Shown here: positions 2,272 through 9,184 of the stretch, piece by piece
Layout: each line of letters opens with the position of its first letter
Numbering within the stretch: the first letter of the stretch is position 1
Assembly (NCBI GenBank): GCA_963771165.1
Contig: CAVYSN010000022.1
Span: 40,305-104,304 of the forward strand
Direction of reading: 5' to 3'
DNA length: 64,000 nucleotides
Origin: an uncultured bacterium
Lineage (GTDB): Bacteria > Acidobacteriota > HRBIN11 > JAKEFK01
Notes under the pieces: generated by a model
What the model saw: only the letters and a program-made list of their open reading frames with translations
Databases searched by the model: none
What the model was told of the DNA's origin: nothing
Position numbers and translations under genes: made by a program

Positions 2272-3033
2272 TCATCGCAGCAGATCGCGGCGTAATGTCA
2301 AACCACCATCATAGAGAATTGTTTGACCTGTCATGTAAAGATCGGGATCCAGCAAAAACAGAACCAGCTGAGCAACATCGGAAGCCTTGCCGTATCGCGG
2401 AATAATCTTTTGCTCCACAAATTTCGAGTACTTTCCCTTTTGAAGACTCTCTTCTGCCATTCCTGCTTGATTCACACCAGGAGCAACGACATTGATGCGC
2501 AGGAATGGATCGCCACCAAACTCTTTGGCGAGGATTTTAGCGCCATGAATCAAAGCGGCTTTGGACATTCCATAAAAGAGCGATCCCTCGAAAGGATAGA
2601 TTCCTTGCATCGATGAAAAGAGGACAATGGCGCCCGGACGCGATTCTCCGCGCATCTTTAAAGCAAATTCCTTTGCACTGTACAGAGGAGAAGATGCATT
2701 ACGAAGAAAGGCGTCTTGCATGTGAGAGATTTGCCCTTTTTGCCAATCCACACGCGCAGGATCACCAATCAAATTCACAAGGGCGTATGGCTCATTTTCC
2801 TGTTCAAAGAAAGTGTTGGTTGCGTCCTGTATCTCTTCCGCCTGCGTAAAATCGCATTCGTAAAAGGTTGCCTTCGATCCTTTCAGGCGAGCTTTCAGCC
2901 GAGCTGCTTTTTCATCCTCTTTATGATGGATCAACATCAGGGAGCACTTTTGCTCGGCCAGGGCGGAAGCAATTTCCTGCCCGAGCCCGCCAGTTGCTCC
3001 AGCGATTAATATGGATTTGTTTTCTAATGTCAC
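2272..3033 (-). CDS. Short-chain dehydrogenase/reductase
   Basis: AGATGGLG Rossmann motif, S...YGMSK catalytic motif, NVVAPG, TGQ...DGG. Confidence 0.9.
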   Translation of the reverse strand: MTLENKSILIAGATGGLGQEIASALAEQKCSLMLIHHKEDEKAARLKARLKGSKATFYECDFTQAEEIQDATNTFFEQENEPYALVNLIGDPARVDWQKGQISHMQDAFLRNASSPLYSAKEFALKMRGESRPGAIVLFSSMQGIYPFEGSLFYGMSKAALIHGAKILAKEFGGDPFLRINVVAPGVNQAGMAEESLQKGKYSKFVEQKIIPRYGKASDVAQLVLFLLDPDLYMTGQTILYDGGLTLRRDLLR

Positions 3034-3120: not shown

Positions 3121-5133
3121 ATGCCTTACCCGACTTTGTTTTCGCCCATTTCAATCGGTTCGTTGAAGCTTCGAAATCGCATCATGATGGGATCCATGCA
3201 CCTTGGATATGAAGGCAAACCGGACTCCGCTGAGCGGATGGCGGAATTCTATGCGGCCCGTGCAAGGGGTGGAACGGCGCTCATCATAACCGGTGGGTGT
3301 GCCATCAACGCGGAAGCAATCGGCGGAGGAAGTTTTAGCTGTATCTACAACGCCGAGGATTTACAAACATTAAGCCGTGTAACGGATCGAGTTCATCAGG
3401 AAGGGGGAAAAATTGGGTTGCAGCTTTTTCATGCGGGCCGCTATGCCGGACGTGAATGGTTGTCCGGGCTGCAACCGGTCGCTCCATCAGCAATACGAAG
3501 CAGTTTGCATCCGGCCACGCCCCGGGCAATGGACGAACAGGACATCCAACGCACGATTGCAGATTTTGCAACCTCGGCGGTACGCGCGCGTGAAGCTGGC
3601 TTTGATTGTGTCGAAGTTATGGGATCAGAAGGATATTTGATCAATCAATTCTTTTCACCGGTCACGAACAAACGAGAAGACATGTGGGGAGGCAATCTCG
3701 AAAACCGGATCCGCTTTGCTGTCGAAGTCATGCTTGCCATCCGAAAAGCATGCGGAGGGGATTTTCCTGTTATCTTCAGGATGTCGGGAATTGACTTGAT
3801 CCCGGGAAGCAGTGGATGGGAAGAAACATTTTATTTTGCAAAGCGGATGCAGCAATGCGGCGCGAATGCCTTAAACATCGGCATTGGCTGGCACGAATCC
3901 CGGATTCCCACAATCTCCATGCTGGTCCCGCGCGCATATTACAGTTTTGCCGTGGCGCGAATCAAGCAACACGTAACGATTCCGTGCATCTGCAGTAATC
4001 GAATCAATGACCCGGACGTTGCGGAAGATTTGATCGCCGCGGGAAAAGCGGATCTTGTGAGTCTCGCCAGACCTTTACTCGCGGATCCTGACTTCGCCGT
4101 GAAAGCAGAAACGGGGAGAAGCGATCTGATCAATACCTGCATCGCTTGCAATCAAGCTTGCCTGGACAATGCTTTTCGCAATGAAGCTACGACTTGCATC
4201 TTGAATCCGGAGGCCGGCCGGGAAAAAGTGATGGCAAAACAGGAGGCCGCCTATAAAAAGAACGTTGCCGTTGTTGGGGCCGGACCGGCCGGTCTGGAGG
4301 CATCCAAAGCTCTGGCCGAACGCGGGCATCGCGTCACTCTTTTTGAAAGGGGAGCAAGAATTGGAGGACAACTCCTTCACGCCATCCTGGTCCCTGGAAA
4401 GCAGGAATTCTTGCAGACAATCCGTTACTATCAGAGCTATCTGCAAGAGTATGGCGTGGATGTCCGGACAAGCTGTGAGCCTTCGCACGATGAGCTTCAG
4501 AAATTCGACGCCGTGATCATTGCAACGGGCGCGCGTCCGAAATCACCGGACATTCCAGGCTCAGAGCAGACAAACTGCATCAACTATGAATATTTTTTTA
4601 ATCATCCTGAGTCCGTTCATGCCGCCGGATCGATTGCAATCGTAGGAGCTGGTGGAATCGGTTGCGACGTAGCCCATTTGATGGCGGATGCTGAAAATTC
4701 TTATCCGCCCTCTTCCTTTTTTGATGACCCAAATCGTGTCGCTTTTTATGAAGAATACTTGCAATCGCTTCCACGAAACCACGAGATCACTCTGATGCGT
4801 CGCGGAAAAAGGATCGGCGAAAAGCTCGGGCCGACCACTCGTTGGGCACTAATCCAGTTGCTTGAGAATCGGGGCGTGCAGATGTTGACACAAATTCAAT
4901 ATCAGTCGATTACGGAGAATGGCTTGCACGCATTAGCACGAAACGGCAAAGAAATTTTTGTGTCCGCGGACAAAATGATTTTCGCCGTCGGACAGGTTCC
5001 TAATTCCGATCTTTATGAGCGGCTCCGTCCAAATCTTGAGAAATGCTATTTGATCGGCGCCGCGCGACTGGCGTCAGAAACAAACGCTCAGGCCGCAATC
5101 TGGGAAGCTGCAGACGTGGCACGCAGAATCTAG
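3121..5133 (+). CDS. fadH: NADPH-dependent 2,4-dienoyl-CoA reductase
   Basis: MGSMH, GSEGYLINQF, GWHESRIPTI, CIACNQACLD Fe-S motif, two GxGxxG motifs, 670 aa. Confidence 0.93.
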   Translation: MPYPTLFSPISIGSLKLRNRIMMGSMHLGYEGKPDSAERMAEFYAARARGGTALIITGGCAINAEAIGGGSFSCIYNAEDLQTLSRVTDRVHQEGGKIGLQLFHAGRYAGREWLSGLQPVAPSAIRSSLHPATPRAMDEQDIQRTIADFATSAVRAREAGFDCVEVMGSEGYLINQFFSPVTNKREDMWGGNLENRIRFAVEVMLAIRKACGGDFPVIFRMSGIDLIPGSSGWEETFYFAKRMQQCGANALNIGIGWHESRIPTISMLVPRAYYSFAVARIKQHVTIPCICSNRINDPDVAEDLIAAGKADLVSLARPLLADPDFAVKAETGRSDLINTCIACNQACLDNAFRNEATTCILNPEAGREKVMAKQEAAYKKNVAVVGAGPAGLEASKALAERGHRVTLFERGARIGGQLLHAILVPGKQEFLQTIRYYQSYLQEYGVDVRTSCEPSHDELQKFDAVIIATGARPKSPDIPGSEQTNCINYEYFFNHPESVHAAGSIAIVGAGGIGCDVAHLMADAENSYPPSSFFDDPNRVAFYEEYLQSLPRNHEITLMRRGKRIGEKLGPTTRWALIQLLENRGVQMLTQIQYQSITENGLHALARNGKEIFVSADKMIFAVGQVPNSDLYERLRPNLEKCYLIGAARLASETNAQAAIWEAADVARRI

Positions 5134-5168: not shown

Positions 5169-5666
5169 ATGTTGGACGTAAATCAAATTGCTCCGGATTT
5201 TTCATTGCCACAATTAGGTAACGGGGAGTTTCGATTTTATGAGTCAGCTTCCAAGAACTCATTACTGATTTTTTATAAGTTCAGCTGCGGAACCTCCCGT
5301 TTTACGTTTCCGTTCCTGCAGAAGATTTACGAGGCGTACGGAGATACTCTGAACTTTGCCGCCATTGCGCAGGATGAGGCGGAAGCTTCTGCAAACTTTC
5401 GTGACGATCTGGGAATTACGATTCCAATACTCCTGGATATGAATCCTTATCCTGTGAGCAGGGCTTTTGGAATTCATACGGTTCCTTCGATCTTTTTTTT
5501 GGATGCAAACCCCAAGATACTCTTCACATCTTATGGTTTCGTGAAACAAGATATTTTGAATCTAGCCGACATCCTTGCAGAAAAATCCGTGCGTCCGCAA
5601 ATCGAGGTGTTCGATTCTGTTGAGGTTCCAGAAATCAAACCGGGGTGAGGAGCAAGAAATCGCTGA
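5169..5666 (+). CDS. Peroxiredoxin/TlpA-like thioredoxin-fold protein, probable C-terminal selenocysteine (TGA 5646-5648 read as Sec: ...KPG-U-GARNR*)
   Basis: APDFSL...FYKFSCGTS...VPSIF redoxin fold. In-frame TGA followed by GARNR-stop and a SECIS-like hairpin. Without recoding the CDS ends at 5648. Confidence 0.8.
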
Positions 5667-5686
5667 GGTCTTCAGCATACACCTCC
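5649..5686 (+). promoter_or_regulatory. Bacterial SECIS element (candidate)
   Basis: GGAG/CTCC lower stem, GCTGA/TCAGC upper stem, GGTCT apical loop; AGGTCT lies at +18..+23 after the TGA. Confidence 0.75.
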
Positions 5687-5807: not shown

Positions 5808-7826
<2,019 letters not shown>

Positions 7827-7856: not shown

Positions 7857-9140
7857 TTAAAATCGCACAACCGTCGACAGAATGAATTGGTCTGAAAGAT
7901 TTGCCAGATCCACGGCCCAGTCGATCTGGAAATGCGAACCGAATACGAAACCATTTCCCATAGTGAAATGATTCTCGTCTTCACGCTCTGAAAAGATAGT
8001 TGCCAGAACATCCTGGCCAAACTGGTTGAATCCTGGAGCCTGGGCAACAATCAGGCTGCTGGCCGAACGACGGTAATAACCCGTTCTCAACGCAATCGGC
8101 ACCTTCCCGGCGAAAACAACAAACTCGGTACCTACGTGAAAATCCCACGCGTCGTCTATGTCGTAGACAATGTCGTCGTTTGTTGATCCCGCTGTGATCA
8201 GATTTCTACCGACTGATATATCTTCAACCAGATCAGAATTTTCAACACGAACGACATCCATAACGAGCGTAATGTTGTCATTTGGCTTCACAGCGAAGCC
8301 CATCCCAAATGTATCTGGAAGCTTCAAAACATTGACAAACGTACCCGGCAGCGCTGATGCGGGTCCGCTTTCAGTCTCGTCCACCTCAAATTTGGGATTC
8401 TTTTTGTAAACGGCTCCGATCGAAAAGCGACTTCCGGTATAGATCAGGCCGGCGTTCCACGCAAAAGCGCTGTCACTATCATCGATGTCGGTCTGATAAA
8501 GGGGTATGAGTCCGGCATCAACAATGAGAACATTCTGAACGTTGGCTTGCCAATCGAGATCTGAGTATCGCGCCGTTGCTCCAACCGAGAAGCGATCGCT
8601 CAGCTTAACACCAAATGAAAAGTTGTAGTTGACTATCGTTTGGTCTTGAGTGGCCGTGGTTCCGAAGGCTTGTGATGCCGCTCCGGGGACACTCAGAATG
8701 AACACTTCATCGATTCCACCTTCTGTCTTGCTGACCTCATGTCGCGAGAATGCCACTGTGGTGCGACCAATCGGATAAACCACACTCAAAAAAGAAGGTT
8801 GATTCAGTTCGTCCAAACTGTTATCGGACCCGATTGTCAGACCTGCGAAGCCGCCTTCTACGATGTTAAAAGAGTTCAAGCGATCCGCATCGAATTCTGT
8901 GTTTCGGTATTCGAATGAAACCTCGGGTTTTGTGAGAATTGTGAGTCCGGCCGGATTTGCTTCCGATGCAGTTGCATCATCAGCAAGGCCAATAAAGGCG
9001 AGACCCATCGCGCCGGAGCGCGCTCCGGGGTTCACAATTGAGAGTTGAAAATTACGAAAAATCTCTTCGTCAGTGATTGCAAAAACATCAGACGAAAACA
9101 ATAAGACGCAGCACGTGAAAATTAGAAGGAACTGTCGCAT
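7857..9140 (-). CDS. Outer-membrane long-chain fatty acid/hydrophobic compound transporter (OmpP1/FadL family)
   Basis: Signal peptide, GAR..AMG.AF...ADD.TA...NPAGL hatch motif, terminal Phe; GGAGG RBS before ATG 9140. Confidence 0.8.
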   Translation of the reverse strand: MRQFLLIFTCCVLLFSSDVFAITDEEIFRNFQLSIVNPGARSGAMGLAFIGLADDATASEANPAGLTILTKPEVSFEYRNTEFDADRLNSFNIVEGGFAGLTIGSDNSLDELNQPSFLSVVYPIGRTTVAFSRHEVSKTEGGIDEVFILSVPGAASQAFGTTATQDQTIVNYNFSFGVKLSDRFSVGATARYSDLDWQANVQNVLIVDAGLIPLYQTDIDDSDSAFAWNAGLIYTGSRFSIGAVYKKNPKFEVDETESGPASALPGTFVNVLKLPDTFGMGFAVKPNDNITLVMDVVRVENSDLVEDISVGRNLITAGSTNDDIVYDIDDAWDFHVGTEFVVFAGKVPIALRTGYYRRSASSLIVAQAPGFNQFGQDVLATIFSEREDENHFTMGNGFVFGSHFQIDWAVDLANLSDQFILSTVVRF

Positions 9141-9184
9141 GTCCCCCTCCTTTTTAATCAAGAAAGAACTATACCCGAAAAGCT

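Follow-up and report, generated by a model that had tools for sequence, protein, structure and literature searches.

Here, we report that a gene in a 64,000-nucleotide (nt) stretch of DNA from an uncultured member of the Acidobacteriota (GenBank assembly GCA_963771165.1, contig CAVYSN010000022.1, positions 40,305 to 104,304 of the forward strand; hereafter, the window) probably encodes a selenoprotein whose selenocysteine (Sec, U) lies in a short C-terminal tail, beyond the point at which gene callers end the protein. The called reading frame, 5169-5648, terminates ...VPEIKPG-TGA. A preliminary description of this DNA had proposed that the called stop is continued in frame by G-A-R-N-R and a second TGA, and that a selenocysteine insertion sequence (SECIS) straddles that second, true stop. 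Both features are where that description had put them, with the second TGA sitting in the 5′ arm of the hairpin. That UGA 5646-5648 is a Sec codon, and the gene product a Sec-tail selenoprotein, is in our view the best explanation of the data as a whole, with a probability of roughly 0.8. As judged from its sequence, the selenoprotein very probably is cytoplasmic, has 165 residues and adopts a TlpA/ResA-like thioredoxin fold. The features on which the argument turns are these:

5169..5666, plus strand: full predicted selenoprotein coding sequence, 165 residues (Met1-Arg165) plus the true stop; gene callers end it at 5648
5286..5297, plus strand: active-site motif C40-G-T-S43
5646..5648, plus strand: TGA predicted to be read as selenocysteine, U160
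5649..5663, plus strand: five predicted tail codons, GGA GCA AGA AAT CGC (G-A-R-N-R)
5664..5666, plus strand: predicted true stop, TGA, inside the 5′ arm of the SECIS hairpin
5662..5676, plus strand: putative SECIS hairpin, GCUGA (5662-5666), loop GGUCU (5667-5671), UCAGC (5672-5676); 5 bp, with a sixth G-U pair possible; assigned by register and by bacterial SECIS (bSECIS) constraints
5649..5686, plus strand: outer pairing of GGAG (5649-5652) with CUCC (5683-5686)

The evidence for Sec is largely comparative. A word-indexed database search yielded 67 close homologues, 66 of which stop exactly at KPG, KAG or RPG, the remaining one being a fragment; standard annotation does miss the tail, as had been anticipated. 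When 61 related genomes were read through stops, nine contained an orthologue matching across the TGA to the end of the extended query, and four had no stop at that point. From related genomes and public genome and metagenome contigs (Acidobacteriota, Bryobacterales, Oligoflexia and soil metagenomes) we assembled 23 distinct loci, leaving out L024, L026 and L028 (same contigs as L043-L045), L050 (identical to L049) and L061 (partial, lacking the C-terminus). Homologous loci are 27-76% identical to the window protein. In all 23, TGA follows [KR][PA]G and is followed by 4-7 codons of the pattern x-[AS]-[RK]-[NKSG]-x and then by a stop (20 TGA, 3 TAG); one locus, L033, comes from an unpublished genome (G035), and without it the count is 22/22. 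Among 101 genomes of the phylum to which the Oligoflexia contig belongs, 8 have a homologue at an expectation value (E) up to 1e-10: six with one TGA (the starting genome included), one Cys form, and one made unreadable by masked bases. This phylum contributes five further Sec-type loci, which read ...FKPG-U-GARNAKT/A or GSRSATA and then TAG. The TGA is thus invariant in 28/28 distinct loci from two phyla, with a tail of 4-7 codons and a second stop that is TGA in 20/28 and TAG in 8/28. For comparison, TGA accounts for 45% of the stops at long-frame ends in the window's genome. Homologues ending in varied stop codons, which the preliminary description had named as an outcome that would speak against Sec, were not seen among these loci. 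The tail codons, the conservation of which it had proposed to check, are conserved in a coding pattern: they switch in ways that preserve the amino acid, including between codon families (Arg AGA/CGA/CGC/AGG, Ser TCN/AGC, Gly GGA/GGC/GGG, Asn AAT/AAC). The frame beyond the second stop is not conserved.

Cys orthologues aligned to the TGA, another check that it had named, exist both as stand-alone proteins and as fusions. The stand-alone Cys forms (P0167, which ends ...EIKPG-C-GSKN, P0189, P0179, P0108, P0135, P0116, P0093 and L082) align residue for residue with the Sec forms, and the Cys form in the phylum of the Oligoflexia contig reads ...KMG-C-GAKNFMEK. A further stand-alone homologue, P0214, has Ser at the Sec/Cys position (...TKPG-S-ASRNRRIP) together with a CPTS active site, and is possibly a derivative without redox activity. 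Four Acidobacteriota genomes have the redoxin domain as the N-terminal part of proteins of 545-638 residues, with Cys at the Sec position (BLASTP 4e-25). The C-terminal domain of these fusions, about 370 residues long, matches no Pfam or NCBIfam family even when E values up to 10 are allowed, and it was not found in the window's genome, the assembly of which is 73% complete, nor adjoining distant Sec forms. In three of the four genomes, a gene for a UGSC selenoprotein, with one in-frame TGA in the context EALAD-U-GSCT, lies directly downstream of the fusion, at about 13-180 nt. UGSC itself (PF24696) was not found in the 73%-complete genome of the window or in the five other searched genomes of the taxonomic family to which the window belongs, both same-genus ones included. 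We considered whether the PG-U-G tail could be homologous to the UGSC motif and rejected this, the EALAD-U-GSCT context being unlike KPG-U-GARN. In the ESM Atlas, stand-alone forms of the 370-residue domain occur, as does a fold-similar cluster of 417-residue proteins, 16% of whose members have the UGSC Pfam family. The genes concerned are:

L031, 367-2004, minus strand: fusion gene
L035, 382-2019, minus strand: fusion gene
L034, 358-2274, minus strand: fusion gene
L032: fusion gene
L071, L070 and G026:C36:1275921-1276424: UGSC genes beside fusions

The family is widespread. When 1.84 billion representatives of clusters at 50% identity were searched exhaustively with HMMER, 3582 matched with E no higher than 1e-3, and 303 of these with E no higher than 1e-10. 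Among the best 150 representatives, 105 end at [KRQ][PAS]G, 10 have the motif with Cys, and 35 are fragments or have other ends. Many thioredoxin-fold matches in Acidobacteriota carry an in-frame TGA inside the active-site motif, for example L036 (G032:C4:260951-261352; ...WSPT-U-LAC...). These resemble the UxxC type described before, and the Acidobacteriota appear to be rich in thioredoxin-fold selenoproteins.

Downstream of the TGA, the window carries the hairpin that the preliminary description had noted, with AGGTCT at +18..+23; the hairpin begins 13 nt past the UGA and its GGUCU loop starts 18 nt past the Sec codon. The statement there that E. coli fdhF has the same hexamer at the same distance is correct: in the K-12 fdhF sequence, AGGTCT lies at exactly +18..+23 after the Sec TGA. 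The two share the UGA, a hairpin, and a loop beginning GGUC. They differ in that the window's stem is short, at 5-6 bp, and contains the gene's real stop, so that its 3′ half is outside the coding region. A bulged U is important for E. coli SelB, and the window hairpin is without one. According to the legend to Fig. 2 of PMC13188914, a bSECIS has a loop of 3-9 nt, a stem of 4-16 bp, G in the first two loop positions, a spacing of 16-37 nt and a minimum free energy at or below -7.5 kcal/mol; the window hairpin (loop GGUCU, 5 bp, spacing 18, -9.6 kcal/mol) agrees with all four published constraints. Of the structure first described, one part did not hold up: the outer GGAG/CTCC pairing is present in the window, is not kept in homologues, and is probably fortuitous. 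An Rfam scan of this stretch returned nothing near threshold, the listed match being IRE_I at 15.7 bits against 34 and on the wrong strand. Read on the minus strand, window positions 5661-5677 give the reverse complement of the hairpin followed by ATTTCTTGCT, which scores as terminator-like; no convincing minus-strand gene ends there. On the plus strand, no T tract follows the hairpin.

Hairpins of this kind recur across the family. A perfect hairpin of at least 5 bp is present in 22/23 loci (starting at +12..+16) and in 5/5 loci of the Oligoflexia-contig phylum (starting at +15..+18), giving 27/28 overall; the exception, L033, has a 4-bp stem with a bulge. The loops are G-rich (GGUC(U), GUC, GUU, GGU, GGC or AGUUU), and the stems are unrelated among lineages: GCUGA/UCAGC, CUGAG/CUCAG, AGGUUCC/GGAACCU, GACCUGC/GCGGGUC, UGAGGCA/UGCCUCA and AAGCCUA/UAGGCUU. 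Conservation was assessed by hairpin tables and a covariance model, and a MAFFT alignment of all 23 downstream regions was not used because it misaligned the distant lineages. The covariance model, built from nine loci, also finds the hairpin in the eight near-clade loci left out of its training, correctly placed and with E of 9e-9 to 0.04. In a 16-locus alignment, 95.8% of cells pair, compared with 27-57% for slid partners and 88.6 ± 1.9% for shuffled alignments, 0/500 of which reach the observed value. RNAalifold predicts no structure on the ungapped alignment, because the hairpins differ by one base in register.

The machinery for Sec insertion, which the preliminary description had suggested looking for, is complete in the window's genome: selA, selB, selC and selD are all there, the tRNA-Sec having been identified by ARAGORN (anticodon tca). 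The genome's selD (L001, G000:C21:339068-340000) itself codes for Sec at an in-frame TGA (...KSGG-U-AGK...), and its SECIS, whose 8-bp stem carries a GUU loop 18 nt past the UGA, serves as an internal positive control of the same architecture. The Oligoflexia genome has selA and tRNA-Sec.

The protein matches Pfam families PF00578 AhpC-TSA (7.5e-12, 45.7 bits, cut-off 26) and PF08534 Redoxin (3.4e-8, 33.9 bits, cut-off 26.6). An AlphaFold2 model from a 25-sequence alignment (predicted local distance difference test, pLDDT, 95.2) finds its best Foldseek matches in ResA, TlpA and DsbE (PDB 1su9, 3gl3 and 4nmu; E of 3e-11 to 1e-10, with ResA at 2.8e-11; query-normalised template-modelling score 0.72-0.73). 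Unlike these proteins, it has no N-terminal membrane anchor and carries a 25-residue C-terminal extension with the Sec. The match to the ResA profile sets in at residue 3 of the protein and position 37 of the profile, which leaves no room for an anchor; the protein begins at the first strand of the domain. With 44.6 bits against a cut-off of 170 for NF002854, it falls outside the ResA subfamily. Its active site is C40-G-T-S43, as first described, instead of the CxxC of the TlpA/ResA type; C40 is invariant in the family (alignments A4 and A8), and position 43 is Cys in most relatives. CxxC occurs in 46/67 close homologues and CxxS in 21/67, and among the 105 G-terminated representatives of the best 150 only 11 have CxxS, most having CxxC. 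The peroxidatic motif of peroxiredoxins, written PxxxTxxC in PMC13188914, is absent: the sequence reads L-I-F-Y-K-F-S-C40, with Lys for Thr at -3 and no Pro at -7. Position 160, as U or C, is one of 10 invariant columns in the 25-sequence alignment A4, along with C40 and P106. The tail had been pictured as flexible, and this was not borne out, since AlphaFold2 models it as ordered, with mean pLDDT 96 for residues 151-160 and 88 for residues 161-165. Short beta bridges are modelled at 156-157 and 160-161, and also at 104-105, just before cis-Pro P106. It had also been suggested that the Sec stands in for the lost second Cys of the motif. This link is weakened, since most relatives keep CxxC and the tail is therefore no replacement for a missing residue. 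In the window's own CGTS clade, C40 and U160 are the only possible redox pair.

Several observations weigh against the Sec interpretation. The 61-nt fold downstream of the UGA has z = 0.57, with 142/200 shuffles folding at least equally well, and among the TGA-ended frames of at least 200 codons in the genome, 272/1534 (17.7%) are followed by a perfect hairpin of 5 bp or more that begins at +12..+16; when G is also required in the first two loop positions, the background is 110/1534 (7.2%). The window hairpin alone is not beyond chance, and its significance comes from the comparative data: with six deep lineages taken as independent and a 17.7% background, the probability that at least 5 of 6 have such a hairpin is 9e-4. 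Covariation within the near clade is modest, with double changes in 2/6 pairs, because the 5′ arm is constrained by the real stop codon that it contains. A simple script passes 13/23 loci on all four bSECIS constraints; among the others, five hairpins fall short of -7.5 kcal/mol and alternative folds hide another five. Co-occurrence with selA is uninformative, since 54/61 relatives have it, including all nine genomes with the Sec form, and the selB of the Oligoflexia genome is found only below the family cut-off. Consider, then, the possibility that the TGA is an ordinary stop and the hairpin a regulatory or transcript-end element ahead of ligA, with the tail conserved at the RNA level. The chance-level fold of the single sequence, the terminator-like reverse complement on the minus strand, and the presence of ligA downstream in the whole near clade would all suit this explanation. 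It is nonetheless highly improbable, given that the TGA is kept in 28/28 loci with amino-acid-level codon switches in the tail, that distant loci without downstream ligA still keep TGA, tail and hairpin, that Cys proteins read straight through the same motif, and that the plus-strand hairpin lacks a T tract. Readthrough of the UGA by near-cognate Trp, Cys or Arg insertion, which a downstream hairpin can in principle stimulate, is if anything harder still to credit: apart from one Ser, the column pairs only with Cys, as is characteristic of Sec; loop and spacing agree with those of known SelB-dependent elements; and the Sec machinery is present. One could also regard the tail as the untranslated, decaying remnant of a longer ancestral fusion gene, since the fused Cys forms continue beyond the same motif. 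Its length and residues, however, are kept across two phyla and followed by a clean stop, and the stand-alone Cys forms share the short tail within a normal reading frame; we give this idea almost no weight.

If the UGA is a Sec codon, the hairpin at 5662-5676 would recruit SelB carrying Sec-tRNA(Sec), UGA 5646-5648 would be decoded as Sec, and translation would add G-A-R-N-R and end at UGA 5664-5666 in the 5′ arm of the hairpin. Where Sec insertion fails, a 159-residue product ending at KPG would result, and is probably also made. The ordered tail would then run back to the active site, where U160 could form a selenenylsulfide with the invariant C40; in the CxxC-containing majority of the family, U160 would add a third centre to the redox relay. 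Substrates of thioredoxin-fold proteins pair with the cis-Pro loop. We propose the U160-C40 bond because C40, P106 and U160 are invariant and the tail is modelled as ordered and bridged near the cis-Pro loop, and we rate the chances that the tail occupies the substrate groove with such a bond as about even. To be set against this, we infer the C40-U160 contact from model confidence values and secondary structure, and no redox partner is established, because the neighbouring genes differ between lineages. It is also possible that Sec is inserted and its selenol is not paired with C40, binding instead a metal, a metalloid or selenium, or acting in trans on a partner such as the unnamed domain of the fusions. 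The PGC motif of the Cys fusions does lie at the junction with that domain of no known family, three of the four fusion genes are directly upstream of a UGSC gene, the Sec of UXX-star may be a metal ligand (according to a passage in PMC13188914), and most members keep a full CxxC, so that a third redox residue is unneeded. We consider this unlikely, since C40 and U160 are invariant together and the tail is modelled docked, and since a search of the window's genome (73% complete) yielded neither the fused domain nor UGSC, and UGSC was also not found in the five other searched genomes of the window's taxonomic family. The selenenylsulfide reading can be extended to a fuller picture, namely a large, uncatalogued bacterial family in which Sec forms far outnumber Cys forms (about 105 versus about 10 among the best 150 representatives), in which a docked Sec arm on a TlpA-like domain forms a selenenylsulfide with the active-site Cys as a single-domain counterpart of the thioredoxin reductase arm, and which, fused to the 370-residue domain and beside UGSC in some lineages, may belong to a multi-selenoprotein redox pathway. 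We offer this combination tentatively, and would bet somewhat against all of it being right.

The analogy that the preliminary description drew, to the Sec tail of thioredoxin reductase, may apply. The animal enzyme has a C-terminal Gly-Cys-Sec-Gly redox arm and has reportedly been made in E. coli with an engineered SECIS after the stop. In both cases Sec lies on a C-terminal tail that would pass electrons to or from a buried dithiol, and the SECIS overlaps or follows the stop. The tail described here differs in being PG-U-G without an adjacent Cys, in having no flavoprotein domain in the chain, and in being modelled as docked. Among bacterial selenoproteins, the thioredoxin-fold entries in Table 1 of PMC13188914 include Prx-like thiol:disulfide oxidoreductase, Redoxin family protein, UGC-containing TlpA family and Prx-SUH. 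These catalogued families share with our protein the fold, PF00578/PF08534, and the pairing of Sec with Cys in homologues. They carry Sec inside the CxxC-type motif (UxxC, CxxU, UGC), whereas here the motif Cys is kept and Sec lies about 120 residues away in the C-terminal PG-U tail. Bacterial families with C-terminal Sec are also known, namely SaoC, KCU-star and UXX-star (bioRxiv 10.1101/2022.07.06.499078; also listed in PMC13188914). In the bioRxiv report, SaoC is shown with UGA-UAG and, after it, a stem of 7 bp topped by a GGU loop, a natural precedent for a SECIS beyond the stop. The three families resemble the present one in having Sec a few residues from the end and a SECIS wholly or partly past the stop. 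They are unrelated families, however, and here the tail is one of 4-7 residues on a redoxin domain.

Models for UXX-star, GUXX-star, KCU-star and UGSC (NF041114, NF041211, NF041212, NF033934, NF041046, PF24696) do not match the protein at E up to 10. The same is true of the VPGUxxT family, NF041383, which has matches elsewhere in the genome, below its cut-off. No model in NCBIfam release 20 matches the protein above a weak generic level. Table 1 of PMC13188914 (119 families and subfamilies, 2026) contains no matching family, the families of Haft & Tolstoy 2025 being covered through that table's list. Passages of deep-Sep and BSepDB, and further literature searches, yielded nothing on the family, though a prior description is possible. 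The sequences very probably belong to a kind of protein that is well known and, within it, form a new family or subfamily, widely distributed and with Sec unusually placed.

The gene lies among the following neighbours in the window:

2272-3033, minus strand: short-chain dehydrogenase
3121..5133, plus strand: flavoenzyme of 670 residues (Oxidored_FMN and Pyr_redox_2 by Pfam), like 2,4-dienoyl-CoA reductase, 35 nt upstream of the selenoprotein gene
5820..7826, plus strand: ligA, NAD-dependent DNA ligase, downstream of the selenoprotein gene
7857-9161, minus strand: FadL/TodX-type outer-membrane channel

With neighbours of these kinds, the selenoprotein gene and ligA seem to lie in a setting of lipid or hydrophobic-compound metabolism. 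The order flavoenzyme, selenoprotein gene, ligA is kept throughout the near clade, where the flavoenzyme is a speculative candidate for the electron donor. In L045 (945-2922; same contig as L028), the match to the flavoenzyme gene is split between two different frames, with the junction at residue 388, which suggests a frameshift or an assembly error. Oligoflexia-type loci (L047, 1655-3501; L060, 3-2019) instead encode an S1/P1 nuclease, a 2Fe-2S ferredoxin and the Sec-tail redoxin, and there the ferredoxin may be the redox partner.

If our interpretation is correct, the probable catalytic residue is missing from hundreds of database proteins entered as "peroxiredoxin" or "TlpA family protein disulfide reductase", and soil Acidobacteriota and the Oligoflexia-related phylum have more selenoproteins than are currently counted. 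Because homology-based selenoprotein finders depend on conserved sequence to either side of the UGA, they overlook a tail of 4-7 residues. Orthologues that end at one conserved residue, always with TGA, are the clue used here, and the same logic could reveal more such genes. The family would also provide a natural SECIS that spans a stop codon, and a small, soluble natural system with Sec outside the CxxC motif, in which CxxC, CxxS and Cys-tail forms are available as natural variants for comparison.

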